This document shows positions 4,743 through 62,786 of a DNA stretch of 64,000 nt, piece after piece. Numbering within the stretch: position 1 is the first letter of the stretch; every line of letters starts with the position of its first letter. The stretch is taken from the IMG/VR virus record IMGVR_UViG_3300013121_000035, positions 40,203-104,202 of that record. The stretch is one strand, 5' to 3'. This DNA is from a virus. Lineage: Duplodnaviria; Heunggongvirae; Uroviricota; Caudoviricetes. The notes below the pieces were generated by a model. The model made no database searches. It had not been told where the DNA came from and saw only the letters and a list, made by a program, of their open reading frames with translations. Made by a program: the position numbers and the translations under genes.

Positions 4743-4767
4743 GGAGGCCCAGGTTGAGGAGGTCACG

Positions 4768-9858: not shown

Positions 9859-9860
9859 CC

Positions 9861-11401: not shown

Positions 11402-11656
11402 TCATGACCGCGGCCACCACGCCGGCGGGGTCCCGCCCGACAGGTGCGCGTTGGCGCGGGCACTGCGCTTGGCCTCGATCGTGATCGTCAACGTCGCGGC
11501 GACGTCGTCCAGCTCGTAGGCGTTGACGGCCTGGCTGATCCAGTACCTGGACTGCGGGCGCATCTCATGCACCATGCGCGCCATCCGCATGGCCAGCTCG
11601 TCGTCTTCCAGGGGCTGCCGTGACAACGGCAGTTGCAGCTGGGGGTTGGTCGCCAT
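11402..11656 (-). CDS. hypothetical protein (84 aa)
   Basis: ORF from the six-frame track. Convergent with the holin-like gene. No recognisable motif. Confidence 0.35.
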   Translation of the reverse strand: MATNPQLQLPLSRQPLEDDELAMRMARMVHEMRPQSRYWISQAVNAYELDDVAATLTITIEAKRSARANAHLSGGTPPAWWPRS

Positions 11657-11889
11657 GCTCGCGCTCCTTCATGCCGTCCAGCAACAGCAAAGGGCCGGCC
11701 GCAAGGCGCGCCCAGTGTGCAGGAACGCCTCGAAGCCGGCCCTTGTCAGCCGCGCTGATGGTGCCTCGATGGCCGGCCCCGCCGGCCACCGGAATCTTGG
11801 ATGATTTCTATCCTGCGGGACGCCAGAGGATCACGTCAAACCCCCTGGACGAGACGGACAGATCGTCACGGCCGACCAGAGCGAGCCGG

Positions 11890-12216
11890 TCAGTCGATAG
11901 GGGTCCCGATCAGCCCGCCGGTGGTGAATGCCGCCTCCACCGGCCCGCGCCCCTCCGGGATCTGGATCACCAGCGTGCCGGTCGCGCCGGGCGCCAGCGC
12001 CGAGCGCGCCGCCCCCTTGGAGCGAGCACGCATCCGCTCGTAGACAGCGGCAAAGTCCGCAGCGGCCCGTGCCGAATCATCATCGGCCGGCTCAGCCCGC
12101 GGACCAGGTTCGATGCGGTCGCCAGACACGGCGCCACCCCCCTCAACCTGGATGAAAACGCGCCCGCTGGACGAGCGCACAAGAGTGCTGGGGGTTGTAC
12201 CACGCGCTGGGAACAA
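11890..12216 (-). CDS. hypothetical protein (about 108 aa, TTG start uncertain)
   Basis: Strong GC3 bias in the C-terminal two thirds (GGLIGTPID, GTLVIQIPEGRGPVEAAF). Lies in an otherwise intergenic-looking 800-bp region. Confidence 0.35.
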   Translation of the reverse strand: MFPARGTTPSTLVRSSSGRVFIQVEGGGAVSGDRIEPGPRAEPADDDSARAAADFAAVYERMRARSKGAARSALAPGATGTLVIQIPEGRGPVEAAFTTGGLIGTPID

Positions 12217-12264
12217 CGCGCAATACGTCAGAATCGGGCGAATCGGGACGTCCGATTTGGCCGC

Positions 12265-12295
12265 TTGACAGCCTGTCGGACCGGCGCGCTAGAGT
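12265..12295 (+). promoter_or_regulatory. sigma70/HrdB-like promoter TTGACA-N19-TAGAGT
   Basis: Exact TTGACA at 12265-12270 and TAGAGT at 12290-12295. Located about 165 nt upstream of the Cas4-like gene, at the start of the rightward early region. Confidence 0.45.
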
Positions 12296-12459
12296 CGCGT
12301 CCTCGGGGCACGCGGCACGGCCGGTGTCCCGGTCCAGGCGGCTCGGCCGCCCAACGGGCCGACCTCCATCCAGACTCGCCGCGGCGGGCTGGCCGGGGGC
12401 CGGCCCGTTGTCGTTTCCGGGGTGACGCCCGTTGCCATCGTCGACGTCGAGGGGGCTCG

Positions 12460-13374
12460 ATGCTCAGCGAACAACCCGTGCGCGCCATGCTGCCGCGCAA
12501 CAATCGCGGCGGCTACGTGTTCAGGCAGTCCACGATCGGCGCCTGGCAGCGGTGCGCGATGCAGGCCCACTACCTGGCCAGCGGCGCCCCCCGCGAGCAG
12601 CTGTCCGCCACCGCGTACGGGTCGGTCGTCCACCACGCGCTGCATGTCCTGGAACGCTACGGGGACCTCGACCAGGCGCTGGCTACGTTCGAGCACTACT
12701 GGCATCCGGACAACATCGGCGAGCTGTGCGACCCGGTCGACGTGTGGCTGCCCCGCCAGACGTACGGCGGGCTGCGCTCTCGCGGCCTGCGCGCTCTGCG
12801 CGACTACGCCGACCTCGCCCGCAGCGACGAAGCCGACATCCTCGCGTTGGAATACACCTTCACCGTCCCGATCACCGGGACCGACCATGACCTCACCGGC
12901 ACGGTCGACCGGCTCACCATCCGCAAGCAGCGCACCATCCCGTACCTTTCCCTCGACGACCATAAAACGGGCAAAAAGCCTGCCTATTTGCGTCATGCCG
13001 TCCAAGGCACCGCGTATTGCTACGCGACAACGCAGCGGGCGTTTTGGGACGGATTTGACGCGGCGCCCGTCCAGCTCCACAGGAGGGGCGAGCTGGACGG
13101 CGCCGCGTTATTCGAGCTCACCAAAACGTGGGCTCGCCGCTTCCGCTGGATCGACCTGATGCACATCGAGCATCACGACGGCGGCTGGCGCTCCGAACGC
13201 GACTACGCCCGGCTGCGGATGGCGGTCAACCAGATCGCCGCGTGCATCGACGCCGACATCTACCCCATGACGCTGTCGGGCGACACGTGCACCTACTGCG
13301 CGTTCCGCTCGATCTGCGGCGGGATCGGCATCGCCAGCGACGACGAAGGCGCCCCCACCAGGCGGCCAGCATGA
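12460..13374 (+). CDS. PD-(D/E)XK RecB/Cas4-family exonuclease
   Basis: ATG 12460 is preceded by GAGGGGG. Cas4-like DxK motif LSLDDHKTGKK, D in TVDRLT, and a C-terminal 4-Cys cluster (C-x16-C-x2-C-x5-C: CIDAD...CTYCAFRSIC). Confidence 0.65.
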   Translation: MLSEQPVRAMLPRNNRGGYVFRQSTIGAWQRCAMQAHYLASGAPREQLSATAYGSVVHHALHVLERYGDLDQALATFEHYWHPDNIGELCDPVDVWLPRQTYGGLRSRGLRALRDYADLARSDEADILALEYTFTVPITGTDHDLTGTVDRLTIRKQRTIPYLSLDDHKTGKKPAYLRHAVQGTAYCYATTQRAFWDGFDAAPVQLHRRGELDGAALFELTKTWARRFRWIDLMHIEHHDGGWRSERDYARLRMAVNQIAACIDADIYPMTLSGDTCTYCAFRSICGGIGIASDDEGAPTRRPA

Positions 13375-14764: not shown

Positions 14765-16150
14765 GTGCCACTGCAAATCCGCACCACCGGCATCGAGGAT
14801 TACCTTGGCGGCGACGCCAACATCAAAGCGTTGATTCTCGGCAAGCCCGGCGCGGGCAAAACTCTGTCCGCTAGCTATTGGCCCAAGCCGATCTTCGCTG
14901 ACTGCGAAGGCGGCCGTGCCTCCATCGCCCGCCGGCGCATCCCATACGCCGACATCAAAACCAGCGACGACATGCTCGCGTTCCTGCGGCTCATCAAAGC
15001 CGAGAACGGCAAGCCGAAAGCCGATCGCCGCTGGCTCACCGTCGTCATCGACACCCTCGACGCGTTCCAGCGAAAGCTCATGCAAGAACGCCTCACCGCC
15101 GAGAAGAAAGACTCCTTCTCCGGGTGGGCCGACTGGGGCTGGCTCGAAGCCAAAATGCTCCAGTTCCTTGAGCGGCTCATGAACCTGGACGCCAACGTCG
15201 TCGTCAACCTGCACATCAAGGAGGAAAAAGAAGGCGACGACGACAACAGCCTGCTCATCACCGCCCCGCACCTGAAGGGCGATATTCGCACGCAAATCGC
15301 TGCCGAATTCGACCTCGTCGGTGTCATGGGCAGCTTCTGGGAAGCCGAAAGCGGTGAGCGGGTCCTCAAGCGCGGCATCCGCTGGGAGGCCGACCCCAAG
15401 CACCCCATCGTCAAAGACCGCTTCGGGCTGCTGCCCAAGTGGACCGAAGTCGACTTCACCGAAGCGGACTACGGCCGGATCTTCACCGCGCTGATGACCG
15501 GCATGGAAGAACTCGACGGCGTCGCCAGCGAGCTCGTCGAGACCGTCCAGACCGACGCCGACCGGCGACCGCCACCCGTCAAGGCCAACCTGCGCGGCGG
15601 CCCCGTCCAAGCCAAGGCCGCCGCCAAACCGCGCCGCGCCGTGCGGCCCGAGCCAACCACCCCGTCTACCCCGGCGACCCCGCTGGCACCACCAGCCGGT
15701 GGTGCCAGTTTGGCGCCAACACCCCAACCCGCTGCGACCACCACCGCGACCACCACAACGGACGTCACCAGCGACGAGACGGCCGCGGCCGAGCCAACCC
15801 AGCCGGTCGGCGACCAACCGGCTGACGAGGCACCCGCCACACCCGAACAAGCCTTGCAGACCATCGCCGCCGCCGGCCTTCGACCGCAGGTTCTTTCTGT
15901 CAACCGCACCACCGAGGACACCGGCACTACACCCACCACCAACGGCACCAGTCCCACCCAACGCCACTGCGGCGACCCCGCCCGAGCAGGCGCCAAGGCG
16001 CAACGCGAAGGCTGCGGCAAGCCAGTGGACCCAGACCACGAGCTCACCAAGATCGCGTCGGTGCGCTGGCGGACCCTGCTGTGCCCCGACTGCTACGCCA
16101 CCAGCAAGCCCGCCGGCCGCAAGCCGGCGCAGACCGCGGACCAGAACTAG
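14765..16150 (+). CDS. Sak4-like AAA_24-family recombination ATPase with C-terminal Pro/Ala/Thr-rich linker and zinc-finger tail
   Basis: GTG start is preceded by AGGGGAGAG. Walker A is GKPGAGKT. The fold follows the Sak4/AAA_24 pattern (VVIDTLDAFQ, hhhh-NLHIKEE). C-terminus carries HCGD...C-x24-CPDC. The antisense 525-aa ORF is rejected. Confidence 0.6.
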   Translation: MPLQIRTTGIEDYLGGDANIKALILGKPGAGKTLSASYWPKPIFADCEGGRASIARRRIPYADIKTSDDMLAFLRLIKAENGKPKADRRWLTVVIDTLDAFQRKLMQERLTAEKKDSFSGWADWGWLEAKMLQFLERLMNLDANVVVNLHIKEEKEGDDDNSLLITAPHLKGDIRTQIAAEFDLVGVMGSFWEAESGERVLKRGIRWEADPKHPIVKDRFGLLPKWTEVDFTEADYGRIFTALMTGMEELDGVASELVETVQTDADRRPPPVKANLRGGPVQAKAAAKPRRAVRPEPTTPSTPATPLAPPAGGASLAPTPQPAATTTATTTTDVTSDETAAAEPTQPVGDQPADEAPATPEQALQTIAAAGLRPQVLSVNRTTEDTGTTPTTNGTSPTQRHCGDPARAGAKAQREGCGKPVDPDHELTKIASVRWRTLLCPDCYATSKPAGRKPAQTADQN

Positions 16151-16681: not shown

Positions 16682-17101
16682 ATGCAGCTCACGCACCCCG
16701 ATCCCCAGCCCGCACGCTTCCAGCTCCACCGCCACCGCAACCTCGCCAACCCCGACGCGATCGGCCTGGTCGCCTCCGGCTGCCAGTGGCCCGACGGCGT
16801 CGTCGCGTTGCGGTGGAACACCTCCACCCCGTCGGTCGCCATCTACGACTCGATCACCGTCGTCCAAGCCGTCCACGGCCACAACGGCGACACCGAGGTG
16901 CTGTGGCTGGACACGCCCTACCCGGTCGGCGGGTGGACCGCCAACCCCGAAGGCCCCGTCATCGCCGACGACGAAGACGGCGACCAGCACGTCCACGTCC
17001 CCACCCCCGGCGGCCCCAGCACCCCGTATGAAGACGCGCGCACCAACGAGCTCATCCAGGCGCGCCGCCGCGCCGCCGAATGGCGTGGTGAGCGGCAATG
17101 A
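16682..17101 (+). CDS. hypothetical protein (139 aa)
   Basis: ATG is preceded by AGGAGCCGG. Stop overlaps the primase-helicase ATG (ATGA). Confidence 0.45.
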   Translation: MQLTHPDPQPARFQLHRHRNLANPDAIGLVASGCQWPDGVVALRWNTSTPSVAIYDSITVVQAVHGHNGDTEVLWLDTPYPVGGWTANPEGPVIADDEDGDQHVHVPTPGGPSTPYEDARTNELIQARRRAAEWRGERQ

Positions 17102-19071
17102 GCATCGACCTGGTGGAGTACCTGGACCGCAAAGGCATCCCCCACTTCCAAGCCGCCGGCCCCGAGCTGACCATCCACTGCCCGTGGTGCCCGGACGGCA
17201 ACCCGAAGTACAAGGGCAAGTGCTACGTGAACACCGCCGACGCGGTCTTCTACTGCCAGCGCTGCCAGGAGACCGGCACCTGGCACAAGCTGGTCCGCCA
17301 GTTCGGCGACGACCCCGACCAGCTCACCGGCACCCCCGACGGTCCCGACCCGCACACCCGCCAGCAGGTCCTCACCGACGCGCTGCGCTACGCGGTCGAG
17401 CAGCTGGCCAACAACGAACCCGTCCTGCGCTGGCTCATGCGCGAACGTGGCCTGGACCCCGAGACGATCGTCGACGCCAAGCTCGGCTGGATCTCCCGCT
17501 CCTGGCCGCTCACCCCACACCTGCGCGAACGCGGCCACTCCTTGGCCGACATCCGCGCTGCCGGCCTGCTGGACTCCCGCGACCGTGACCTGTTCGCCGA
17601 CCACCTCGTCATCGCCTACCGCTCCCGCAGTGCGGTCATGCAGCTGCGCGCCAAGGCGATGGGCGGCAAGTACCTCACCGGCGCTGGCGAAGCGGTCCGC
17701 CTGTTCGACGTCGACCAGCTCACCGGCCCCAACGGCCCCCGCGACCGGGTCCTGATCACCGAAGGGGAACTGGACGCCCTCATCGTCGGCCAACACCTGG
17801 CCCGCAGCCCCGACCCTGCCCTGCGCGACCTCGGCGTCGTCGCGCTGCCCGGCGCCAGCGCGTTCCCCAAGGAGTGGGCCGACTACTTCCGCCACACTAA
17901 GCGGGTCTACCTCGGCCTGGACCCTGACGACGCCGGCCGCAAAGGCGCCGAGAAGATCCAAGCCGCGCTCGGCGCCAAAGCCCGCGTCGTCCAACTGCCC
18001 GCCACCAGCCCCAAGTGCGACTGGACCGAGCTGCTGACCAACCGCGGCGGTACCTGGCGGGAAGTCCGCGAGCTGCTCGCCAACTGCGGCGGCCGGCGGC
18101 TGTTTTCCGTCGCCGACGCCGCCGCCGCCTGGCGCAAGCAGCGTGCCACCACCACCGGCGTCAAGTTCGGCTACGCCACCATCGACGCGGCGATCCTGCC
18201 CGGCGTGCTGCCCGGCCAGCTCGTCGTCGCCCTGGCAAAGACCGGCGTGGGAAAGACGGTCTGGTTGTGCAACCTCGCCTACGCCATGCGCGAGCGGCGC
18301 GTGCTGTTCGTCAGTCTGGAGATGACCCGCGCGGAGGTCTACACCCGCCTGGCGCGCATCTACCGCTTCTGGCATCCGCTGGCCAGCGACGACGACATCG
18401 ACCGCGCGTACGCCAACCTCGCCATCTGCGACGAGAACCGCCTGGACGCCGCGGTCCTGGCCGACCTGGTCACCGAGTACACCGAGGAGTACGGCACCCC
18501 ACCCGAGCTGGTCTTCGTGGACTACCTCGGCTACTTCGCCCGTGCGATCACCGGCGTTGGCGCCTACGACAAGACCTCCAACGCGGTCATGGAACTCAAG
18601 GCGTTCGCCAAGAGCGCCGACCTCATCGTGCTGACCCCCGCGCAGGTCAACCGGATGACCAAGGACGGCAAGCCGGTGGAGTCCGACGCCGCCCGCGACT
18701 CCGGTGTCATCGAGGAAACCGCCGACTTCCTGTTCAGCCTCTACCGGCCTGATGACGCGGTCAACGAGGAGCTCGCCCCCGAGGACCGCACCCCCAGCGC
18801 CAAGGTGAAGCTGGAGATCCTGAAATCCCGCCACGGCGGCAAAGGCACGGTCGCCACCCTCACCTTCTCCGCCGCGAGCCTGGTTCTGGTCGACGCGGGT
18901 ACCGCCGCCGCTCGACGCGCCGAGGCCGAAAGCCACCAGATCTGGCAGGGCGCCACCTACGAGGAAGTCGCCGCCGCCGAACGCCGCCGGTTCCTCGCCG
19001 CCGGCCACCACCAACCCACGCTCCAGCACACCCAGCAGCCACTCACCCTCGTCCAAGGAGGCGCATCGTGA
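17098..19071 (+). CDS. bifunctional DNA primase / DnaB-family helicase (zinc-binding + TOPRIM + RecA-like helicase domain)
   Basis: N-terminal CPWCPDG...CQRCQ zinc motif. TOPRIM-like acidic cluster VLITEGELDALIVG and DPDDAGRKGAE. C-terminal Walker A AKTGVGKT and Walker B LVFVDYLGY. The antisense 815-aa ORF is rejected. Confidence 0.65.
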   Translation: MSIDLVEYLDRKGIPHFQAAGPELTIHCPWCPDGNPKYKGKCYVNTADAVFYCQRCQETGTWHKLVRQFGDDPDQLTGTPDGPDPHTRQQVLTDALRYAVEQLANNEPVLRWLMRERGLDPETIVDAKLGWISRSWPLTPHLRERGHSLADIRAAGLLDSRDRDLFADHLVIAYRSRSAVMQLRAKAMGGKYLTGAGEAVRLFDVDQLTGPNGPRDRVLITEGELDALIVGQHLARSPDPALRDLGVVALPGASAFPKEWADYFRHTKRVYLGLDPDDAGRKGAEKIQAALGAKARVVQLPATSPKCDWTELLTNRGGTWREVRELLANCGGRRLFSVADAAAAWRKQRATTTGVKFGYATIDAAILPGVLPGQLVVALAKTGVGKTVWLCNLAYAMRERRVLFVSLEMTRAEVYTRLARIYRFWHPLASDDDIDRAYANLAICDENRLDAAVLADLVTEYTEEYGTPPELVFVDYLGYFARAITGVGAYDKTSNAVMELKAFAKSADLIVLTPAQVNRMTKDGKPVESDAARDSGVIEETADFLFSLYRPDDAVNEELAPEDRTPSAKVKLEILKSRHGGKGTVATLTFSAASLVLVDAGTAAARRAEAESHQIWQGATYEEVAAAERRRFLAAGHHQPTLQHTQQPLTLVQGGAS

Positions 19072-50191: not shown

Positions 50192-50563
50192 CTACGGGGG
50201 GGTCAGGTCAGGGCGAAGATCACGCAGGTGCTTCACCCCGTCGATCACGGCGGCTTCCACATAGCGCAGCCGCCGCAGCGAGGAACTGGCCATCATCCGC
50301 TGGCCGGCGCGAATGCCACGCCAACGGGCATGGTCGGTCGGCCGCGGACGCATCGTCTCCGGCGGCAGGCCGCGCGCGACCCAGGAACGCTGACGTTCCC
50401 GCTCGGCGACCCGCAACGCCTTGCCGGGGGGGATCACGTCCATCCCAGCTTCGAGGACCTCCTCCAGCGGGTGCCAGTCACCATCGGCAAGCACCCGCAG
50501 CATCGCCAGCGATGCCGGGCTGAGCGTCACACGCGGGTGCGCCTTGTTCGGGTTACTTGCCAC
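50192..50563 (-). CDS. hypothetical protein, possible winged-helix DNA-binding (123 aa)
   Basis: Track ORF. LAMLRVLADGDWHPLEEVLEAG. Confidence 0.4.
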   Translation of the reverse strand: MASNPNKAHPRVTLSPASLAMLRVLADGDWHPLEEVLEAGMDVIPPGKALRVAERERQRSWVARGLPPETMRPRPTDHARWRGIRAGQRMMASSSLRRLRYVEAAVIDGVKHLRDLRPDLTPP

Positions 50564-51539
50564 GCAGCTTCTCCGCCAGCAGGCTCAGGCGACTGGCGGC
50601 GTCCTCCAGGTCGCGGATCATCTGCGGCCGCTCAGCGCTTGGCACCGACTCGACCACCGCAGCCTCGTCGAGCTTGCGGATGCCGCCGACGTACATGCGG
50701 ACCACATTGCGGGGGCTGCCGGTCAGGTCCATGACCCGCCCTTGGCGGCGGGTGGCGAGGTTGGCTTCCAACTGGTCCAGGTAGGCCCAGGTGTCTTCCT
50801 CGCTGCTCATCTTGTTGATGTCGGTCACCATCGTGAAGACCTCGGGGGACTTCATCCGCGTGTCGACCGCGAGCTGCGCGGCCCGCTCGAACCAGCGGTC
50901 CATCTTGATCTGGTTCAGCCGTGCCTGGGAGGAGTTGGCCAGGGACACAAACCCGCGGACCTTCAGCTTCTGCGCGCGGCGGATCGCGGCCTCCTTGTTG
51001 ACCGCGCCCTGCACCTTGCCCTTGGGCAACGCCAGCTGCCGGGCCGCCTCGTCAGGGCTCACCCCGGCGTTGCGGACCAGCCAGATCGCGTGGCTGACCC
51101 GCACCCGCTCCTCGGGGATCAGCCCGTTGTGGCCGTTGGCGGTCAACGTCATCGCCTGCAGCTTGATCGGGTCGGTGCCCGGCTCGACGACGTAGTGCGG
51201 GAACGACTCGAAGTCGTTGGACAACGCCGCCGCGATCCGGTTGTTCCCGTCGATCAGGATCAGCCCACCGACCGGATCGGGGTAGGAGACGACCGCGGGG
51301 AACTCCGTACCGTGCTCCATCAGCTCGGTGTAGGACTCCACCAGGTCGGGCACCAGCGCCTCGTCACGGGCCTGGTTCTGGCGGCTCTTGGCCAGGTTGA
51401 CCTTCTCCAGGGGGACTTCGGGGTCGTAGTACCACTCGACGTCCCAGTCCTCCAGCCACTGTTCGATGTCGGCGCGGCGGGCCGCGTCATCCAGCGGCGC
51501 GAGGTCGCTGGGGCCAAGCTGCTTGCGGGTGGATGCCAT
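50553..51539 (-). CDS. ParB/Sulfiredoxin-like N-terminal nuclease-domain protein (328 aa)
   Basis: LILIDGNNRIAAA matches the ParB GxxR box. About 200 aa of C-terminal helical extension. Confidence 0.55.
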   Translation of the reverse strand: MASTRKQLGPSDLAPLDDAARRADIEQWLEDWDVEWYYDPEVPLEKVNLAKSRQNQARDEALVPDLVESYTELMEHGTEFPAVVSYPDPVGGLILIDGNNRIAAALSNDFESFPHYVVEPGTDPIKLQAMTLTANGHNGLIPEERVRVSHAIWLVRNAGVSPDEAARQLALPKGKVQGAVNKEAAIRRAQKLKVRGFVSLANSSQARLNQIKMDRWFERAAQLAVDTRMKSPEVFTMVTDINKMSSEEDTWAYLDQLEANLATRRQGRVMDLTGSPRNVVRMYVGGIRKLDEAAVVESVPSAERPQMIRDLEDAASRLSLLAEKLRGK

Positions 51540-51559: not shown

Positions 51560-53188
51560 TCAGATCGTGCGGAACAGGTCGCCGGTGGTCGATTCCACAT
51601 CAATCAGGTCGACCACCGTGCGGGTGTTGTCGCTCACGGCGGCGATCTCGGGGGTGACATCGGTTGCGACCGCCACGCCGAAGCAGCGGAACCCGCTGCG
51701 GTCTTTGCGCTCATGCCAGCGGCGCAGAAACGTCGGGGAGATCGGCGCTTCACCGTCGGTGACGAACACGATGTCGCCATGCTGGCGCCCGGTGCCGCTG
51801 AACTCCCGCTCCAGGAGTCCACTGGCGACGTCCAGCGGTGCCTCAAAGTCGGTCCCCCCACCCCAGAAGTGCTCAGCGAGCGCAATTCGGTCGCTGATGG
51901 TAGACGCACCAGCACGAAACAGGAAAGTCTGGATTTGGTTGCGCGAGCTGAACAGGACACACGCGAAATCCCGCTTGGCCGTGCGCGCCTGGTCCAGCAG
52001 CGCAAGCGACAACGCCTTGCCCCACGCCTCCCGGCTCGGCTCGCGCATCTGCCAGCTGATCCCGCCGCCCATCGACCCCGAGCAGTCCAGCACGACCACG
52101 ATCGCGCCCTTGCCGATGCGTTCCTCGCCGCGTAGCTGGCCTTGCAGCAGGCTGCTCTCGGCGAACCGGCGCAGGAACTCGATCTCCAGGTCGTCGTCAG
52201 CCAGCAGCAGCAGCTCGCTGGGCAGCACCAGCCCCAGGTCGTTGCCGGTCACGATGTCGTGCAGCTCATCCACCCCGTGGACGACCTTGCGGGCACGCTC
52301 CGCCTGCGCCAAGGTCCGCATCCGCCCGATCAGCTCGCTGAACTTGCGCAGCTTGTCGCTCTGCAGCTGCTTGGCGAGCTGCTGACGCTGGCGGAAGTCC
52401 AGCTTCTGCAGCTCCCCGTCGCCGATGCCCCACGAGCGCATCGCCTCGGCCTGCTCGTCCAGGTCCTTGGTCGCCTGCTCCGCCGCCTCCCGTAAGCTCT
52501 TGGCGGTCTTGGCCTTCAACGCGTCGTTGGCGTCGTCCAGCAGCTCCCCGGCAGCCTGCGCTGTCGCAGCTGCCTGCTGCGCATCCGCCATCGCCTGCGC
52601 CAACTGCTGCGCGGCGTCCTCGGGCAGCGACCCGTCCTCGCCGGCTTGCTGCTGCGCCTGGTCGAGTTGCTCAGCCAGCGCCTGGGCTTGGGCGGCCGCC
52701 TCGGCCTGGGCACGCTCAACCTCCTCCGCGCGCTCCTCGGCCTCAGCAGCCTGGGTGAGCGCGTCCTCGATCGCCGGGCGCATCCCCAGCAGGCCCATCA
52801 CCGCGCCGTACTCGTCATGGATCGAATGCTGGCGTAGCGCCTCGATCTCACTGGTCTCCGACAGGTTGCCGACCACCGTGTGGTTGGTCCGCCACCGCGG
52901 GTGCATCTGGTCACGGTCGCGCCGTTCGGGGTAGTTCTTGTACAGCAGGTGGTACAGGTCGCGCAGCAGATCGCCGGTGTGGCCGTGATGTTCCCCCAAT
53001 TCCTCGGCCACATCGCTCAGTGCAGGCACCTCACCCAACAGTTCCTCGAACATCTGCGCGTCGAAGCGGTCGTGGCGGATCGCGTCGGTCGCTGTCGGGT
53101 AGACCTCCGCAACCGATGCCAGGAACGACTCAACCTCGCTGACCAGCTGCGCTCCATCAGGAGTTTGGTCCTCACTCACTGCGCACAC
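51560..53188 (-). CDS. von Willebrand factor A (vWA) domain protein with MIDAS motif and long coiled-coil N-terminal region (542 aa)
   Basis: C-terminal VVVLDCSGSMGG (DxSxS) and FVTDGE. Central AEAEERAEEVERAQAEAAAQ... coiled coil. Confidence 0.65.
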   Translation of the reverse strand: MCAVSEDQTPDGAQLVSEVESFLASVAEVYPTATDAIRHDRFDAQMFEELLGEVPALSDVAEELGEHHGHTGDLLRDLYHLLYKNYPERRDRDQMHPRWRTNHTVVGNLSETSEIEALRQHSIHDEYGAVMGLLGMRPAIEDALTQAAEAEERAEEVERAQAEAAAQAQALAEQLDQAQQQAGEDGSLPEDAAQQLAQAMADAQQAAATAQAAGELLDDANDALKAKTAKSLREAAEQATKDLDEQAEAMRSWGIGDGELQKLDFRQRQQLAKQLQSDKLRKFSELIGRMRTLAQAERARKVVHGVDELHDIVTGNDLGLVLPSELLLLADDDLEIEFLRRFAESSLLQGQLRGEERIGKGAIVVVLDCSGSMGGGISWQMREPSREAWGKALSLALLDQARTAKRDFACVLFSSRNQIQTFLFRAGASTISDRIALAEHFWGGGTDFEAPLDVASGLLEREFSGTGRQHGDIVFVTDGEAPISPTFLRRWHERKDRSGFRCFGVAVATDVTPEIAAVSDNTRTVVDLIDVESTTGDLFRTI

Positions 53189-53195
53189 CTCCCTC

Positions 53196-54398
53196 CTACT
53201 TGTCCTGCCAGATCTCGTCGGCGCTGTTCGCCGGCCGCATCCCCAGGCACTGGGTCCACACCTGGTTGGCGACCTCCAGGTGGCGGGCGATGATCTCGTC
53301 CAGCTTGGTCGTGGACCGGCCGGACTTGACCGCGTCGGCGCGTAGCTTCTTGAGCTTCTTGTGCATCGTGCGCATCTTGGCGTTGGCGTCGAACCCGAAC
53401 TTGTTCAGCTCGTCGCGCGCCTCACCGCCCAGATCCCGCAGCCGGGAGGCGAGCTCGTTGACGCTCTCCAGGATGATCACCGCGTCCTTCAGCTGCGGGC
53501 TGGCCAGCGTCAGTACCATCCGCTCCACCGGCTGGACCTGCTCGATCGTCTCCCACAGCGCGTAACGCAGGATGATCAGGTCTTCGTCGATGCACTGGGA
53601 ACGGCCGTTCAGGTAGGCGTGGGCTTGCACCAGCCGCACGCACTGTTTGAACCTGCGATCGGAGGGATGCATCCCCGCGCCGCGCATCTGGGTCCACAGC
53701 TTGGCCATCGCCTCGAAGATCGCGTCGGACACCGGCAACGCGGGCACCTCGACCCGCACCGCCTGCTCCAGCTCTGCCAGCGACACCGTCGTCGGGATGC
53801 TCGCCGGCGCGACCGCCGAGCGCAGCAGCTTGTCGAAGTTGCCTGGCTCCTCGATGTAGTTGACCGGGAACCGGACCAGGAAGCGGTCGAAGATCGCCGC
53901 GGTCTCCTCCGAGTCGGGCAGCTCGTTGGACGCACCCAGCACGCTCAGCGTCGGCGTGGCCACCGGCTGGGGGTTGTGGAAGATGTGCTCGTTGGCGATC
54001 GCCAGCAGGGCGTTCAGCACCGCCGAGCGGCCCTTCCAGATCTCGTCGATGTAGGCGATGTGCGCCTCGGGCAGCATCCCGTCGGTCACCCGCACGTAGC
54101 GGCCACGCTTGAACTCGTCGATGTCCAGCCCGCCGACGACCTCCTCCACCTGGGTGGTCGGCCACAGCAGCTTCTCGAAGTAGTGCGCGTCGGTGACTCG
54201 CTCGCAGAACGCGCGGATCAGCTGGGACTTCGCGGTCCCCGGCGGGCCGAGCAGGAACCCGTTGGCGTTGGCCAGCACGGTCACCGCCAACGCCTCGATC
54301 GCGCCGCGGCGCTCCAGGAACTCCTCGGTGAGCTCGGTGACGATCGCCTTCAGCTTGGCCTGCGTCGTCGCGGTTGGGGTCACGGTCACGGTGGTCAT
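53196..54398 (-). CDS. MoxR-type AAA+ ATPase (400 aa)
   Basis: Walker A GPPGTAKS and Walker B IAYIDEIWK. Sensor region ALLAIANE. Immediately upstream of the vWA partner gene. Confidence 0.65.
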   Translation of the reverse strand: MTTVTVTPTATTQAKLKAIVTELTEEFLERRGAIEALAVTVLANANGFLLGPPGTAKSQLIRAFCERVTDAHYFEKLLWPTTQVEEVVGGLDIDEFKRGRYVRVTDGMLPEAHIAYIDEIWKGRSAVLNALLAIANEHIFHNPQPVATPTLSVLGASNELPDSEETAAIFDRFLVRFPVNYIEEPGNFDKLLRSAVAPASIPTTVSLAELEQAVRVEVPALPVSDAIFEAMAKLWTQMRGAGMHPSDRRFKQCVRLVQAHAYLNGRSQCIDEDLIILRYALWETIEQVQPVERMVLTLASPQLKDAVIILESVNELASRLRDLGGEARDELNKFGFDANAKMRTMHKKLKKLRADAVKSGRSTTKLDEIIARHLEVANQVWTQCLGMRPANSADEIWQDK

Positions 54399-54877
54399 CT
54401 CTCCTCGCTCTCCGCAACGGCCGTTGCCGTTGCCAGGTCAGGGTCTTCCTCCGGTGGTAGGGGGCGCTGCTTGGCGCCCATGAACGGCGTGCTGCTCACC
54501 GCCGGCTCGCTCGGGTGGTAGCCCCACGGCAGCCGTTGCCCGGTGGTGTTGACGTACAGGTGGTACTGGTTGGCTGCGTCGACCTTGCGCGACTCCGCCG
54601 GGTACAGCTCGATCCCCTCAGCCTCGGGGCCGAAGATGTCGTTCTTGATCCGTTGGAAGTCACGCCAGTCGCGGATCGCCGCCCGGTTGTTGTGGCGGAT
54701 CGACAGGTGCGCCCACCCGTCCATGTCGGTCGGCTCCACGATCACCGTGTACTTGTCGTTCTTGAACATCCGCGCGCCGCGTGCGAAGAACCGCTCGATC
54801 ACGTCCGGCTGGATCGGAGCGGCGGGCGCCATCCGCTGCCACGGGCGGGGAGTGTTGGACTTGCGCTGCTTGCCCAT
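54395..54877 (-). CDS. hypothetical protein (160 aa)
   Basis: Track ORF. ATGA overlap with the MoxR start. W/H/R-rich. Confidence 0.45.
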   Translation of the reverse strand: MGKQRKSNTPRPWQRMAPAAPIQPDVIERFFARGARMFKNDKYTVIVEPTDMDGWAHLSIRHNNRAAIRDWRDFQRIKNDIFGPEAEGIELYPAESRKVDAANQYHLYVNTTGQRLPWGYHPSEPAVSSTPFMGAKQRPLPPEEDPDLATATAVAESEER

Positions 54878-55101
54878 CAGCTCACCTTCGCCTCACGCTC
54901 GCGGACCTTGCCCAGCAGCACCTCCAGGTCCTTGATGATCCCGCCGAGCGTCTTGGCCTCACGGGCGAATCCGGCCGCGGTCAGCGCCTTGTGGGCCTTG
55001 TCCAGCGACGGGAACGCCGTGTTGATCGCTGTCTTGGCCCTGGACGCCTGCCGTGCCGGGCTCAACCTGGCCTCACTGGTCGCCATGCTTCCTCCCTTCA
55101 C
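54877..55101 (-). CDS. hypothetical small protein (74 aa)
   Basis: Track ORF between the ligase gene and the 54395..54877 gene. Confidence 0.35.
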   Translation of the reverse strand: MKGGSMATSEARLSPARQASRAKTAINTAFPSLDKAHKALTAAGFAREAKTLGGIIKDLEVLLGKVREREAKVS

Positions 55102-56021
55102 GTCACCGGCAGCTCATCCAGCTGCGAACTCACACACGCCGCCGGCTCCACGTCGCTGCGGACCCCCTTGAACGCGGGGTTGCGCAGCTTGCCGTCACGG
55201 CTGACCGACAGCGCCTCCACCTCCACTACCAGCGGCACCCCGGCGTCGAGCGTCTGCTTGCAGACCGCCAGGTCCGCCTCGGTCAACCCCGAGCCGACCT
55301 TGCCGACCAGCAGCAGCGACGCATCTGGGGCGACCAGGACCAGCTTCAGCGCGCCGACCTTCCCGGCCCTGGCACCCTGGCCGGGCTCGTAGCCGATCGC
55401 GATCGCGGTCAGCCGGCTGGTGGTCTTGAACTTGCACCACGCCGGGCTGCGCCGACCCACATACCGTGAGCCGCGCCGCTTGGCGACCACACCCTCCAGC
55501 CCCAGCGCCCGCACCTGCGCCCACAACGCCACGCCGTCCTCGCACACCACGGAGCGGCGCACCGGGCCGTCCGCCGGCCACGCGGCCGCCAGCTCGTCCA
55601 GGCGTCCCAGGCGCACCTCCAGCGGCTGGCCGCGCAGATCCCGGCCGCCCTCGGCGAGCAGGTCGAACGCGATCAGCGTCGCGGGGAACTGGCGAGCTGC
55701 CAGCCGGATGGAGAAGTCGCCCTGCTGCGCGTCACGGCGGTGGATCGCGGCGAAGTCCGGCCGGCCGCCACGCAGCACAACCAGCTCGCCGTCAACGACA
55801 ACGTCCGTCAACAGCGCAGCCAGCGCGCTGGTCAGATCTGGGTAGCGCGCGCTGATGTCAGCGCCGCGCCGATTGCGCAGCCGCACATGCCCCCCCTCGG
55901 CGACCACGATCGCGCGGACGCCGTCCCACTTGGTATCCCACAGCCACTGACCGCTCGCCTGGAACGCCGCGATCTGCTCGGGCTGTCCGGGACTGGCCAG
56001 CATCGGCTGGAAGCCGCTCAC
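55098..56021 (-). CDS. ATP-dependent DNA ligase (adenylation + OB domains)
   Basis: GTG start overlaps the RuvB-like stop (GTGA). Motif I KWDGVRAIV, then FDLL, EGVVAK, WCKFK. Confidence 0.7.
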   Translation of the reverse strand: MSGFQPMLASPGQPEQIAAFQASGQWLWDTKWDGVRAIVVAEGGHVRLRNRRGADISARYPDLTSALAALLTDVVVDGELVVLRGGRPDFAAIHRRDAQQGDFSIRLAARQFPATLIAFDLLAEGGRDLRGQPLEVRLGRLDELAAAWPADGPVRRSVVCEDGVALWAQVRALGLEGVVAKRRGSRYVGRRSPAWCKFKTTSRLTAIAIGYEPGQGARAGKVGALKLVLVAPDASLLLVGKVGSGLTEADLAVCKQTLDAGVPLVVEVEALSVSRDGKLRNPAFKGVRSDVEPAACVSSQLDELPVT

Positions 56022-57130
56022 GATAGCGCCTTGCCGTGACGGGCGTCCGCCAGCTGCTGGATACGCGCCTGGCCGAGCTGGGTCAGCGAGCGGCCGTTGG
56101 CGGTGCGCGTGATGAACCGGCGGTCCACCAGCAGCTGCTCGACGTAGGCCAGCCCACCCGGCTCGCGCATCTGGTTGGCGATCGCCTTCTCCCCAGCGGT
56201 CCCACCGAGATCGCGCAGCGTGAGCAGGTAGTGCGCGGCCTGGTCGGTCAGCCCGTCGGGGTACAGCCCCGCGCGGCGCAGCGGCACGTCCAGATCGAAC
56301 GTGGTCCCGTCCCAGTTGTCCCCGTCGCGGGCGACGTAGATGTCGCGCACCGCGATCAGCACCGGGATCATCAGCCGCGGCACCCGGTTGGCTGCCGTGG
56401 AGATCGTGTAGTAGAAGTCCGGGTCGGTGGGCAGCGGCACCCCGTCAGTGCCGAACCCGACCCGTGCGGCCAGCTGCACGCAGATCGACAGGGCCTCAAC
56501 TTCGTCGTAGGGGTGCAGCGCTGGGCGGATCAGGAAACGGTCAAGGATCGTCTCCGGCAATCGGCCCGCGTCGGTCGTCGCGCCGATCACCGTGACGTCG
56601 GGCACGTCGTCCAGCGTCACCCCGCCAGCGCCGAACAGCGCGCCGTCCTGCAGGTAGTTCAGCAGCCATTCGGCCTTGCCCTTGCCGCCGTGCACCAACC
56701 GATGGACCTCGTCGATGAACAGAATGTCGTGGTCGTCCAGGCTCACCAGCGCCGCGTAGGCGTCCTTGACCGTGAGCGTCCCCGACAGCATCAGGAACTG
56801 CTGGCCCCACTCCTTGCCGACCAGCATCGCCAGGCTCGTCTTGCCGATCCCCGGGATGCCCGAGGCCAGCAGGATGTGGTCCAGGCGCGCGTCGCGCCGT
56901 CGTGCTGAGGTGATCGCGTCGCGCAGGTGCGCCTTGGCGTCCTCCTGGCCGACGTACTCACTCCAGCTACGCGGGTAGTGGGTGCTGGTGAAGATCGCGT
57001 CGCCGCTGGCCGGGGCGAACTGGCTGGCCAGCGCCGTCGCCTTGCCCTCCTCGCGGATCGCCTTGCGCCGGCGTTGGATGAAGTCCATCGCCACCTGGCC
57101 GGCGAACATGTTGACCGCGCTGCCACGCAT
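56018..57130 (-). CDS. RuvB-like AAA+ ATPase
   Basis: Collinear RuvB pattern: YPRSWSEYVGQ, LDHILLASGIPGIGKTSLA, ILFIDEVHRL, VTVIGATTDAGRLPETILDRF. No ruvA-like gene is adjacent. Confidence 0.6.
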   Translation of the reverse strand: MRGSAVNMFAGQVAMDFIQRRRKAIREEGKATALASQFAPASGDAIFTSTHYPRSWSEYVGQEDAKAHLRDAITSARRRDARLDHILLASGIPGIGKTSLAMLVGKEWGQQFLMLSGTLTVKDAYAALVSLDDHDILFIDEVHRLVHGGKGKAEWLLNYLQDGALFGAGGVTLDDVPDVTVIGATTDAGRLPETILDRFLIRPALHPYDEVEALSICVQLAARVGFGTDGVPLPTDPDFYYTISTAANRVPRLMIPVLIAVRDIYVARDGDNWDGTTFDLDVPLRRAGLYPDGLTDQAAHYLLTLRDLGGTAGEKAIANQMREPGGLAYVEQLLVDRRFITRTANGRSLTQLGQARIQQLADARHGKALS

Positions 57131-57132
57131 GG

Positions 57133-58020
57133 TCAGCTCGCCTTCCGCCGCCGCCTGACCGGCGCCGGCGCGGCCTCGACCGGCTCGGCAGGCGTGGGCT
57201 TGGGCTTGGGCTTGCGGGTCCGCTTGGGCTTGGGCGTGTTGGCCGCCACCGCTGCCCGCAGCGTCGCCATCAGGTCGCCACCAGTCGGCAGCTCAACCAC
57301 TGCCGCCTGCGCCGTGGCCGCCTGCGGGTCCTTGGCCGCCACGATCTCGGCCAGCTTGTCGGCCTTGACGTCGCGGTAGGCAGCCGGGTCGAACGGGCGG
57401 GTCAGGCTCGCCAGGAGCTGCTCGGCCAGCGGCAGCGCACCCTCGGCGAAGCTGGTCGGCACCATCGGCATCGCCTTGATGTCGGCCGGCCAGGCCAGCT
57501 GCTCCAGCACCAGCACGTCGCCGAAGGTCCGCAGCGCGAACATGGTGACGGCCGTTCGCAGCGCCAGCCGGCAGCACAGCGTCAGCTCCGGGTGGGTCTT
57601 GAGTGCCGCTGCGATCAGCGCGTACGCCTCAGCGGTGGAGGCGTCGCTGGTCAGGTAGTAGACCTTGCCGCCCGGCAGCGTCTTGGCCTTGACCTGCTCG
57701 CTCGGATGGGGGAACAGCTCGACCCGCTCGCCCTTGAACGCCTCGACCTCGGCGTCGATCGCGGCCAGCTCCTGGTCAGTGAGCAGGACGTAGGCGTCCT
57801 TGCCCTTGGGCCGGCCCTTGGTGAACGTCGCCTTGTCGGCATTGCCGCACGTCGGGCACGTGCTGGACTGCTTGGGCTTGTCGGGTGGGTGGGGCTTGTC
57901 CGCCGAGCCGACGCACAGCGTCGTGTGCGAGCTCGGGCTGGTGATGGCGCTCTCCACGTCGACCCTGGCCGAGACCAGCGGGCCGAACGCGAGCGTCACC
58001 CCCGAGGTGACCGTTGCCAT
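57133..58020 (-). CDS. ku: Ku (NHEJ DNA end-binding protein) with Lys/Pro-rich C-terminal tail
   Basis: ATG (MATVTSG...) is preceded by AAGGAGG. Ku-core pattern: VTLAFGPLVSARV, CPTCG...DAYVLLTDQELAAID, VELFPHPSEQV, KVYYLTSD, EAYALIAAAL, LAWPADIK. C-terminus carries KPKRTRKPKPKPT. Confidence 0.7.
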   Translation of the reverse strand: MATVTSGVTLAFGPLVSARVDVESAITSPSSHTTLCVGSADKPHPPDKPKQSSTCPTCGNADKATFTKGRPKGKDAYVLLTDQELAAIDAEVEAFKGERVELFPHPSEQVKAKTLPGGKVYYLTSDASTAEAYALIAAALKTHPELTLCCRLALRTAVTMFALRTFGDVLVLEQLAWPADIKAMPMVPTSFAEGALPLAEQLLASLTRPFDPAAYRDVKADKLAEIVAAKDPQAATAQAAVVELPTGGDLMATLRAAVAANTPKPKRTRKPKPKPTPAEPVEAAPAPVRRRRKAS

Positions 58021-58137
58021 GTGAGCCTCCTTGGTTCGAGGCGGCACCCCAACCCGGTGGCAACCGGGGGAGATGCGTTGTCGTCCTGCCAGTATACTAC
58101 AGAATTAGCTAAGTCTCACCTGCTCTGACCAGGTGTT

Positions 58138-58923: not shown

Positions 58924-59721
58924 TCATGCGGCCCAGTCCTCGATGTCGTCCACCTGCTCCACGCCGGCCGCGGCGACGACGTCAGCCATCGACAGGTCCA
59001 TGCGGAAGCGGTGGCCCATGCGCGCCTCGGCTGCGGCGTACTCCGTGGCTAGGTCCGGGCGCAGCTGTGCGGCCAGCACGAGCTGACTGCGGCTGGCGAA
59101 CACGCAGAACGAACAGCTCAGCCGTGGCATCCCCTGGTCGTACACCGGGTGATAGGGCACCCCGGACGCCCGGATGCGCTGCCACACCTGCGCGGTGGAC
59201 CAGGCGTGGATCGGCAGCCACTCCCATACGTGCCGGCGGGTCTTGTTGCTCGCCCGCTCGTCGAAGGCGAACGCCGGCCGCTTGGCCCTGGCCGGCGACT
59301 CCGCCGCTCGCAGGCCCATGCAGTTCAGGATCTTCACCGGCCGGTCCAGGTCCAGCTCCCGCACCAGCTGGGTCATCAGCTTGTAGACCTGGTTGCGCTT
59401 GAACTCCGACGTGCAGTAGCGGTTCTTGGCGTCCGGCCACCGGCCGCGCAGCTCGATGCGTTCCAGCAAGTCGATGTCAGGGTGCTCGACGATCTCGAAC
59501 CGCAACCCGTAGTGCGCCGCCTGCCTGCCTGCCAGCTCGGGCACCCCGTCCCACTCCACCCGGCCCAGGTCAGCGTGGACAACCACGATCCGGCTGCGTG
59601 GCACACCCTAGGCGTCGGCCAGCTCGGCCACGACGTCCAGCTGCGCCTGAGAGTCCTTGCCCCCGGAGGAGTTGACCAGCAACACGTCGTAGTCGTTGAG
59701 GTTCACGGTGGCTCCTTGCAT
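58924..59721 (-). pseudogene. PAPS-reductase-like (phosphoadenosine phosphosulfate reductase family) gene interrupted by in-frame TAG at 59608-59610
   Basis: N-terminal segment (ATG about 59721) carries VLLVNSSGGKDSQ. After TAG the same frame continues through GTG 59604: GVPRSRIVVVHADLG...CTSEFKRNQ...SCSFCVF. The two segments together read as a single gene. Confidence 0.5.
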
Positions 59722-61698: not shown

Positions 61699-62256
61699 TC
61701 ACCACTCCCAACTGGGCAGCTCGTCGATGATCGCCGCGTCCCGGTCGAAGTTGACCCAGGTGCAGTCATGGGCGCGGGCGAACTGAACGACCTTGAGCAG
61801 GTTGGGAAGTTGACCGTGCTCGGCGAACGCGTTGTCTTGCTCGTGCGGGTCGTCGATCTGCACATTCACCCACGCACCGTAGGCGTGCGGGATGACCCGG
61901 GCCGGGAGCTGGTCGGGGTTGATCTCGCTGTCGCGCGCGTTGCGCAACGCCACCATCTCCGCCTGCGGCAGATGCCCGGTGGACAGATCCAGGTAGCGGC
62001 TGATCGGCAGCGTCTCGGTGACAGCCGGCGGGAGCTTGACGTCCACGGTGCTCCAGCCCTCACGGTCGTTGCCGTCGAAGTACGCCTCGATCGCCTCGTC
62101 ACGGTCGGCCGGGATCTCCCCCTCGGAGAAGCCGTCCTCCCAGTGCTCTTGCACCCACAGGTACAGCGACTCCTTAGCCTCATCGTGGGTCCGGTGCACC
62201 TCAGTGATCATGTCGTGCCGCAGGTCGATCGTCAGCACCACACCGTCTCGCTTCAT
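61699..62256 (-). CDS. hypothetical acidic protein (185 aa)
   Basis: Internal ATG (MKRDGVVLTIDLRHDM...) with GAGGAAT RBS. The longer track ORF N-terminus is low-complexity. Confidence 0.45.
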   Translation of the reverse strand: MKRDGVVLTIDLRHDMITEVHRTHDEAKESLYLWVQEHWEDGFSEGEIPADRDEAIEAYFDGNDREGWSTVDVKLPPAVTETLPISRYLDLSTGHLPQAEMVALRNARDSEINPDQLPARVIPHAYGAWVNVQIDDPHEQDNAFAEHGQLPNLLKVVQFARAHDCTWVNFDRDAAIIDELPSWEW

Positions 62257-62276
62257 GATCTCGCTCGATTCCTCAC

Positions 62277-62786
62277 TCAGCTGTGCGCGGTGACCCGCAG
62301 AAACAGCTCCGTGATCGTATTGGCGGGCAGCGCCGCGGTCTCCCACTCGCCACCCGCGCCGTGCTTGGGCCATGCGGTCCAGCGCACCTCATCGGTGCGG
62401 ACCTTGCGCCGGTCCACCTCGCTGCGAACCTCCAGGTCCGCCTCGTCGAGCAGCGCCCACAGCGCCGTCTGGTCAGCGTCGCTGAGGACCTCGAACGTCT
62501 CGGTGTCGCTCTGGATGCGGTCCAGCAGGCCATCCGCGCTGCCGTCGAGCAGCGCCTCGCTCAGCGAACCGTGGTCATCGTCGCGCAGCCATCGCACCCG
62601 GTGGTCCCAGGCCAGCAGCGCGTCCACGTCCCCGTCGGTGGCGCTCAACGTCGCCACCGCCTGCATCTCCTGGCCGATCCGCAGCAGCGCGTCCTCCGTC
62701 AGCGCCACGACCGCGCAGCTCGGCGACTCGTGGTCGCCGTCACCGGAGACGTTGAGCACCACCGTGATGGTCTTGGCGTCGGTCAT
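62277..62786 (-). CDS. hypothetical acidic protein (169 aa)
   Basis: Track ORF. Confidence 0.45.
   Translation of the reverse strand: MTDAKTITVVLNVSGDGDHESPSCAVVALTEDALLRIGQEMQAVATLSATDGDVDALLAWDHRVRWLRDDDHGSLSEALLDGSADGLLDRIQSDTETFEVLSDADQTALWALLDEADLEVRSEVDRRKVRTDEVRWTAWPKHGAGGEWETAALPANTITELFLRVTAHS

Follow-up and report, generated by a model that had tools for sequence, protein, structure and literature searches.

A recurrent six-gene phage cassette encoding Ku, a LigD-type DNA ligase and a divergent RuvB-family ATPase, a candidate end-joining operon

The sequence analyzed here is a 64-kb stretch (positions 40,203 to 104,202; hereafter the window) of a 104,202-bp metagenomic contig (JGI/IMG; IMG/VR record IMGVR_UViG_3300013121_000035). 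Its minus strand carries adjacent genes for a Ku homologue, a RuvB-like AAA+ ATPase and an ATP-dependent DNA ligase, which open a string of 10 genes running from Ku to a gene for a DUF6744 protein, with spacers ranging from 4-nucleotide (nt) overlaps to no more than 60 nt (Table 1). An initial annotation had described the Ku, RuvB-like and ligase genes as three translationally coupled minus-strand open reading frames (ORFs). They lie exactly where it had placed them, all of the motifs that it quoted are present in the translations, and the junctions agree with coupling: the TGA stop codon of Ku is followed after 2 nt by the ATG of the RuvB-like gene, which in turn overlaps the ligase gene by 4 nt (GTGA). 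The G+C content at third codon positions of the three ORFs (0.90-0.93, against an overall GC content of ~0.70) is typical of real high-GC coding sequence. The extent of Ku alone required correction. The gene is real, but its start is the ATG at 58020 (295 amino acids, aa) rather than the GTG at 58047 originally chosen, because an AAGGAGG ribosome-binding site lies 6 nt upstream of this ATG, the homologues align from the corresponding Met and the IMG gene call is the same. The sole sigma-70-like match between 48.5 and 60 kb was found in the gap upstream of Ku, and no terminator-like sites were detected in this interval. This site is a candidate operon promoter, and the three genes are proposed, from their arrangement, to stand first in a single early operon. 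By eye, an inverted repeat rich in GC (CCCGGT-TGCC-ACCGGG) was also noticed in the presumed 5' leader, within the AT-rich 117-bp gap upstream of Ku (58021-58137, minus strand).

Table 1. Features of the window discussed in the text; positions are counted from the first nucleotide of the window.
Feature	Position	Strand	Evidence or remark
Promoter-like site GTGAGA-17-TATACT	58091..58119	-	Consensus match only; AT-rich gap upstream of Ku
Ku homologue, 295 aa, Lys/Pro/Arg-rich C-terminal tail	57133..58020	-	
RuvB-family AAA+ ATPase, 370 aa, phage-specific clade, truncated presensor-1 hairpin	56018..57130	-	
ATP-dependent DNA ligase, LigD ligase-domain type, 307 aa	55098..56021	-	
74-aa ORF, 4-nt overlap with ligase gene	54877..55101	-	Not kept in relatives
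DUF7694 protein, 160 aa	54395..54877	-	Pfam 4.8e-17
MoxR-type AAA+ ATPase (bpMoxR/RavA-like)	53196..54398	-	Pfam bpMoxR 1.9e-48, AAA_5, AAA_lid_8; NCBIfam RavA 1.6e-51
VWA-domain protein (ViaA-like co-chaperone), long AEQ-rich N-terminal region	51560..53188	-	Pfam VWA_2; NCBIfam ViaA 3.2e-18
328-aa ORF, faint ParB-like N-terminal match	50553..51539	-	phrog_1033 9.6e-5
123-aa ORF	50192..50563	-	In apparent gap between the 328-aa ORF and DUF6744
DUF6744 protein, 346 aa	49091..50131	-	Pfam 6.8e-23
PD-(D/E)XK exonuclease	11620-13374	+	
Sak4-like AAA_24 annealing protein	14765-16150	+	
Primase-DnaB helicase	17098-19071	+	

The identities first given to the three proteins hold: Pfam thresholds are passed in each case, with PDB and NCBIfam comparisons in agreement, as are the PHROGs for Ku and the ligase. 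The Ku-core assignment was obtained with Pfam PF02735 (38.4 bits, with the gathering cut-off at 25; E = 1.6e-9), with phrog_4873 (3.8e-20) and with bacterial Ku in the PDB (8.5e-11 over residues 59-272). The protein falls below the TIGR02772 equivalog cut-off (91.6 against 150 bits) and is therefore a divergent family member, a divergence that also accounts for the failure of tblastn to find any homologue of it in deposited phages. The ligase was matched above the gathering thresholds by the Pfam domains DNA_ligase_A_M (90.9 bits, residues 6-199) and DNA_ligase_A_C (36.2 bits, residues 264-290), and a reading of its translation revealed the motifs KWDG, FDLL, EGVVAK, KFK and LRNPAFKGVRSD. It consists of the nucleotidyltransferase and OB domains only, which together fill the whole protein; polymerase (primase-like) and phosphoesterase domains are absent from it and were not found among the window ORFs scanned. 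Its top PDB match is the ligase domain of Mycobacterium tuberculosis LigD (1VS0, 2.7e-33), and its top NCBIfam model is TIGR02779 NHEJ_ligase_lig (206.5 bits, just under the cut-off of 227.75). The phage thus encodes a ligase of its own, as originally supposed, and one of the LigD ligase-domain type. The natural reading of a phage Ku beside such an enzyme, whose best models are those of LigD and of ligases of non-homologous end joining (NHEJ), would be the self-contained end joining that had been suggested for this locus.

The second protein was found to match the Pfam domains RuvB_N (PF05496, 95.4 bits) and RuvB_C, the winged helix (27.8 bits), both above the gathering thresholds, and to align end to end with RuvB sequences from the PDB (~1e-23). 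Its scores with the equivalog models NF000868 and TIGR00635 were below the cut-offs (140.5 against 282 and 117.8 against 299 bits, respectively). In a search of 5.8 billion proteins, ~60 metagenomic proteins scored between 139 and 819 bits and form a clade with it, cellular RuvB proteins appearing from ~119 bits downward. An AlphaFold2 (AF2) model computed from an alignment of 36 clade members reached a predicted local distance difference test score (pLDDT) of 93.5, and in a Foldseek search with this model the top 47 PDB matches were all RuvB, with target-normalised TM scores of up to 0.84. Since the next AAA+ folds were weaker by ~10 orders of magnitude, the model argues, together with the RuvB profiles, that this is a true RuvB-family protein with the predicted three-domain fold (large ATPase domain, lid and winged-helix head), as the initial annotation had it, and not a generic AAA+ protein. 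The Walker A and B motifs, sensor 1, the arginine finger, sensor 2 and the head-domain G-R...T do not vary among the 36 clade members (G94, G96, K97, D140, E141, T185, T186, R198, R252, G346 and R347). In RuvB, the arginines of the head domain bind DNA, and the protein's presensor-1 beta-hairpin together with helix alpha-3 is the docking site for domain III of RuvA (PMC9477746). Of the three arginines in the head motif R-T-P-R-G-R, two (positions 342 and 347) are retained in the window protein. Its hairpin, like that of every other clade member, is shorter by 6-8 aa (18-20 aa after [QE]D, against 26 in cellular RuvB), and the strand GPAARS[IL][KR]L, conserved and hydrophobic in cellular RuvB, is missing in all of them. 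The protein is further distinguished by a GGK insertion that follows Walker B and by a helical extension of ~50 aa at its N terminus.

A profile made from the RuvA proteins of 31 cellular ruvAB loci gave no match in the 64-kb window or in any clade locus and did recover the host-type ruvA of a control locus (L108, 140 bits), so that the absence of a nearby ruvA noted at the outset is confirmed. Scans of genome and metagenome contigs with the clade alignment were dominated by cellular ruvB, owing to the generic Walker B pattern, and served only for the construction of this profile. No RuvC, RusA or other resolvase was matched by Pfam among the window ORFs scanned. Three features that define RuvB as a component of RuvAB fail here, namely the hairpin, the presence of RuvA and an ortholog-grade score; the RuvA docking site appears, from the alignment, to have been lost, and the protein is predicted to be an ATP-driven motor that acts independently of RuvA.

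Proteins with the RuvB fold are rare among catalogued viral proteins (one clear match in BFVD), and the RuvB matches in deposited phages, at most 38% identical, look like host ruvB in prophage or metagenome records. The clade is absent from the plasmid collection, and scans of IMG/VR with the single RuvB-like or Ku protein gave no matches. Two divergent short-hairpin RuvB-like proteins from metagenomes (P0068 and P0085) are fused to a C-terminal PF14550 domain, which we take to be an XkdF-like phage protease domain; these fusions suggest that there are further phage RuvB paralogues with other jobs. A 623-aa clade member with an N-terminal extension of 250 aa (P0029, L230:9001-10872) was considered as an informative fusion and rejected, the extension matching no cassette family.

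The genomic contexts of the clade members were taken from assemblies (L001-003, L230 and L231) and from IMG/VR (L084-L103), the contigs being predicted viral sequences from metagenomes, and were searched by tblastn and with profile hidden Markov models built from the window and its relatives. Six genes were found to recur on one strand within ~10 kb, encoding Ku, the ligase, the MoxR ATPase, the VWA protein, DUF6744 and the RuvB-like protein. Besides the window, 11 non-redundant loci (L084-087, L092, L093, L095, L097, L099, L103 and L231) hold the full set, and several further loci are interrupted by the locus edge or the contig end. A narrower search with a Ku alignment re-found the same contigs only. 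The cassette proteins of the relatives are only 22-47% identical to those of the window, and the loci are therefore not copies of one phage. The ORFs of 25 loci were clustered all against all, and, once antisense shadow ORFs over cassette genes had been set aside, only the six cassette families proved common to more than eight loci. Conditional on the RuvB-like gene, from which all of these loci were sampled, DUF6744 and the RuvB-like protein were each present in 23 of the 25, MoxR and VWA in 18 each, the ligase in 16 and Ku in 12. The next real family was DUF7694, a sporadic companion of the cassette found at variable positions in 6/25 loci. Because these six families are common and the genes flanking them in the window have no homologues in any related locus, the block is seen to persist while its surroundings turn over, and the conserved unit is the six-gene cassette.

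The usual gene order is Ku-ligase-MoxR-VWA-DUF6744-RuvB-like. In the relatives, the Ku and ligase genes are adjacent or overlap by 4 nt, the ligase and MoxR genes are similarly tight, and these junctions are often overlapping or within ~50 nt. Since the usual order puts the RuvB-like gene last, the adjacency of Ku, RuvB-like and ligase genes in the window, where the RuvB-like gene lies between the other two, is a local permutation; two further placements were observed in L084 and L085. The window's arrangement appears to be shared by a near-identical 2.5-kb Logan contig, as its Ku and RuvB-like proteins each map to a contig of this length. The three-gene architecture had been called unusual, and it is indeed absent from 50,697 deposited phage records; it is, however, not the conserved unit. 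Nor is the view sustained, as framed, that the module has three genes and that RuvB serves it as an additional motor for NHEJ, given that the RuvB-like gene mostly stands at the far end of the cassette, after DUF6744, which is its main partner: DUF6744, not Ku, is its most persistent neighbour. The arrangement recurs in uncultivated phages but is characterised nowhere. Two side observations concern individual relatives. In L001 (7368-7955) and L003 (6504-7088), a gene for a protein with a WGR domain, the DNA-break-sensing domain of PARP enzymes, lies just upstream of the RuvB-like gene; the window has no such gene. The cassette of L231 is canonical except for an HNH-like gene (5064-5735), probably a homing-endonuclease insertion, between MoxR and VWA.

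The cassette is a composite of sub-modules. The MoxR, VWA and DUF6744 genes form a stand-alone operon on large plasmids of Streptomyces sp. NBC_00239 (L148:5981-9987) and Nocardia farcinica (L149:5997-9987), in the latter case directly downstream of a conjugative type IV coupling protein. Two more distant RuvB-like loci (L105 and L107) keep this trio and have no Ku or ligase, and in Bacillus phage 0305phi8-36 a MoxR-VWA pair lies beside a RecQ helicase. A pairing of another kind was found in a viral locus of 61% GC (L135:9836-12799), in which a RuvB with a hairpin of canonical length and a detected lid domain is encoded upstream of Ku, at a distance of 0.9 kb. The Ku match is strong (Pfam, 123 bits), and no RuvA or ligase is present within 10 kb. 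This independent pairing, a single case, is suggestive of a link between Ku and RuvB.

The DUF6744 family comprises 608 clusters at 50% identity. No PDB homologue was identified by profile search, which returned generic helical-hairpin matches only (e.g. EsxA), and an AF2 model from a three-sequence alignment was unusable (pLDDT 42.7), word-indexed searches having yielded one protein with a single sequence and three with a 15-sequence profile. Comparison by hhalign gave probabilities of 0.2% for RuvA and 0.3% for Ku, and the possibility that DUF6744 is a divergent form of either was rejected. We found no mention of DUF6744 or of this gene combination in the papers searched.

Ku was found in deposited phages only in 87 mycobacteriophage records. 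The early statement that mycobacteriophages carry Ku alone was supported by direct inspection of Courthouse and Corndog, in which no ligase, RuvB-like, MoxR, VWA or DUF6744 gene was detected near Ku. The 'AAA ATPase' and ParB-like genes near Ku in Corndog were considered as the same cassette and rejected, as only Ku of the six family profiles matches this phage. In Courthouse (Omega-like; L146:7025-10605, gp207-gp201), an FtsK/SpoIIIE-like double-stranded DNA translocase is encoded 1.4 kb downstream of Ku; here too, a phage Ku has a ring translocase nearby. Omega (cluster J) and Corndog (cluster O) circularise their genomes at cos by means of Ku and host LigD, according to the accounts of Pitcher et al. 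2006 given in PMC12848934 and PMC4351075. What they have in common with the window phage is a Ku-core protein, basic in its tail, that is encoded by an actinobacterial phage of ~70-110 kb and presumably acts on the phage's own DNA ends; they differ in having Ku alone, whereas the window phage has its own ligase and the further cassette genes. The bacterial two-component system, Ku and LigD (Della et al. 2004, as cited in PMC12848934), likewise encodes Ku together with a LigD-family ligase domain. Unlike LigD, the window ligase is without polymerase and phosphoesterase domains, both window proteins are under the equivalog cut-offs, and the pair sits in an operon with two AAA+ ATPases. The 'NHEJ DNA ligases' of the rhizobiophages phiLM21 and vB_RleM_PPF1 resemble the window ligase in being LigD-type and ligase-only (~30-34% identical), but are encoded by stand-alone genes near attP or a genome end, without Ku or other cassette genes. 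Deposited phages thus carry Ku alone or the ligase alone, and never the six-gene set.

With RuvAB, the RuvB-like protein shares the three-domain fold, the invariant catalytic residues and most of the DNA-binding motif; the truncated hairpin, the GGK insertion, the N-terminal extension and the lack of a RuvA profile match in the window and of a Pfam RuvC match among its scanned ORFs set it apart. According to a survey of jumbo phages, the RuvC of phages lacks coupling to a RuvB-like ATPase (PMC7824862). A MoxR-vWA pair with a conserved third component is a published theme, four such components being known: VMAP, iSTAND, FtsH and a beta-propeller (PMC7159879). The cassette resembles these ternary systems and RavA-ViaA in its adjacent MoxR and vWA genes, which match RavA and ViaA, and in its conserved third gene. 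That gene encodes DUF6744, however, a protein with no other Pfam domain and unlike the four published components, and the trio is carried by phages and plasmids rather than by chromosomes of multicellular bacteria, with no effector domains seen. MoxR-VWA-DUF6744 may be a fifth type of MoxR-vWA ternary system, found on mobile elements.

The source of the window is an uncultivated phage, probably temperate, as judged from a gene content that includes an endolysin, a large serine integrase and the primase-DnaB helicase; WhiB, UDG, NlpC/P60 and HNH proteins are also encoded. The high GC content, the WhiB gene and the nearest plasmid homologues, which are in Nocardia and Streptomyces, point to an actinobacterial host. 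The window has no DNA-level kin among the deposited phage records. The plus-strand genes between 11620 and 19071 constitute a homologous-recombination/replication module, and the phage thus has gene sets of both the homologous-recombination and the NHEJ type. No tRNA genes were found in the window, and no capsid, portal or terminase genes were recognised within it. Large ORFs of 693, 731, 503 and ~300 aa at 91-6548 and 8980-10505 (plus strand) possibly encode tail or host-recognition proteins; they had no informative Pfam or PHROG match, and one overlapping ORF matches only a PHROG of unknown function. Upstream of the cassette lie genes for a PAPS-reductase-like protein (58924-59604, minus strand) and a DUF5983 protein (61699-62373, minus strand), neither of which is kept in the related loci. 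Within the operon, the 328-aa ORF has no tblastn match in any related locus; a ParB-like 'IDGNNRIAA' motif was noticed in it by eye, and Corndog also has a ParB-like protein, gp90, encoded near Ku.

We see roughly an even chance that the cassette is a self-sufficient phage end-joining operon, a six-gene DNA-end cassette in which Ku and the phage's own ligase are joined by accessory AAA+ remodellers. Ku rings would thread onto linear phage DNA ends, either those that the genome has on injection or breaks that host nucleases introduce, and would recruit the phage's ligase-only LigD homologue, by which clean or cohesive ends would be sealed. As the phage supplies its own ligase, circularisation or repair could then proceed independently of host LigD. 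The lack of polymerase and phosphoesterase domains in this ligase argues for the joining of defined, clean ends rather than the processing of damaged ones. The RuvB paralogue would be an active hexameric translocase on double-stranded DNA that no longer docks on RuvA; a partner encoded in the cassette, for which DUF6744 is the likeliest candidate, would recruit it. In concert with the MoxR-VWA chaperone pair, the paralogue would remodel or clear protein-DNA complexes at the ends. We infer the end-joining activity and its substrate from the protein families, and gene linkage is what suggests the motor steps of the RuvB-like protein and of MoxR-VWA. In eukaryotes, the extraction of Ku depends on p97/VCP, and a vWA domain is fused to Ku70/80. 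A more integrated machine, in which MoxR-VWA and the RuvB paralogue with DUF6744 load or push Ku rings, or extract those trapped on the sealed genome, would by analogy be a prokaryotic or viral counterpart of this extraction and would echo the vWA domain of Ku70/80; we regard it as improbable.

Several observations weigh against a single end-joining operon. The co-occurrence counts are biased by the sampling from the RuvB-like gene, the position of which within the cassette varies. The MoxR-VWA-DUF6744 trio occurs without Ku, ligase or RuvB-like genes on the Nocardia and Streptomyces plasmids and in Moorella phage MTATph1, and DUF6744 and the RuvB-like gene are found in the flanks of L100, L101 and L230 without a detected Ku or ligase; L102 also keeps only DUF6744, with a weak 78-bit ligase-family match ~9 kb away. 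The linkage is hierarchical, DUF6744 and the RuvB-like gene being nested within the association with MoxR-VWA, and this in turn within that with Ku and the ligase. Since each sub-module is found without the others, the sub-modules may be able to work independently, and their co-location may reflect co-regulation only. It is accordingly possible, if somewhat unlikely, that three separate modules are merely co-located as early genes under one promoter: Ku and the ligase for end joining, MoxR-VWA-DUF6744 as an unrelated ternary chaperone or conflict module (for example in anti-defence, establishment of incoming DNA or virion assembly), and the RuvB paralogue in recombination-dependent replication or branch migration together with the phage's Sak4-like and exonuclease genes. 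The separate occurrence of the sub-modules favours this main rival, as do the presence of Ku alone in mycobacteriophages and of the ligase alone in rhizobiophages, the PD-(D/E)XK exonuclease and Sak4-like protein encoded in the window, and the documented roles of MoxR-VWA chaperone pairs in virion assembly (PMC7824862) and in conflict systems (PMC7159879). At least 12 loci nevertheless keep the six genes as one group, with 22-47% identity and despite a complete turnover of the flanks; the order of the genes is shuffled inside the block while the block itself is not dispersed, the Ku-ligase-MoxR junctions remain tight, and the recombination genes lie ~40 kb away on the other strand and not with the RuvB-like gene.

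A role in counter-defence, with Ku capping ends against RecBCD/AdnAB-type exonucleases, the ligase resealing restriction or CRISPR cuts and the AAA+ motors displacing host factors, is to our mind quite unlikely. Phage Mu offers a precedent in Gam, a Ku-like protein that caps DNA ends against host exonucleases. The genes are phage-borne, apparently early and behind a promoter-like site of their own, the ligase-only enzyme would be suited to resealing clean cuts, and an interplay of host NHEJ and phage double-strand break repair is documented in mycobacteria (PMC12848934). On the other side, no cassette protein was matched by PADLOC, which covers defence and not anti-defence, and the sequence does not separate this role from genome circularisation, the two being not mutually exclusive. 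It is very unlikely, finally, that the RuvB-like protein acts as a substitute RuvB, taking over the RuvA and RuvC of the host for classical branch migration of Holliday junctions. Its full three-domain RuvB fold with intact catalytic and DNA-binding residues would allow this, and cross-species complementation between RuvA and RuvB is known (PMC9477746); but throughout the clade the docking hairpin is 6-8 residues short and without its conserved hydrophobic strand, the protein attains half of the RuvB equivalog cut-off, and neither ruvA, with a dedicated profile, nor a RuvC or resolvase match in Pfam among the scanned ORFs was found.

The cassette combines known kinds of component, namely phage Ku, two-component NHEJ, the RuvB family and MoxR-vWA ternary systems, and is itself uncharacterised. 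A genomic context can now be assigned to DUF6744, and a possible fifth type of MoxR-vWA ternary system on mobile elements can be defined. A natural RuvB without the RuvA interface would be useful for establishing what the RuvB ring does on DNA without RuvA, and a compact, portable end-joining operon may find use as a tool where hosts are deficient in NHEJ. The usual picture of bacterial NHEJ is that of a minimal two-protein system. If the end-joining operon proposed here is real, this lineage would be the first among phages seen to have a complete Ku-ligase pair of its own, linked to two AAA+ remodellers and to the uncharacterised DUF6744 family of ~600 clusters, and it could provide a handle on how prokaryotes clear Ku rings from repaired DNA.

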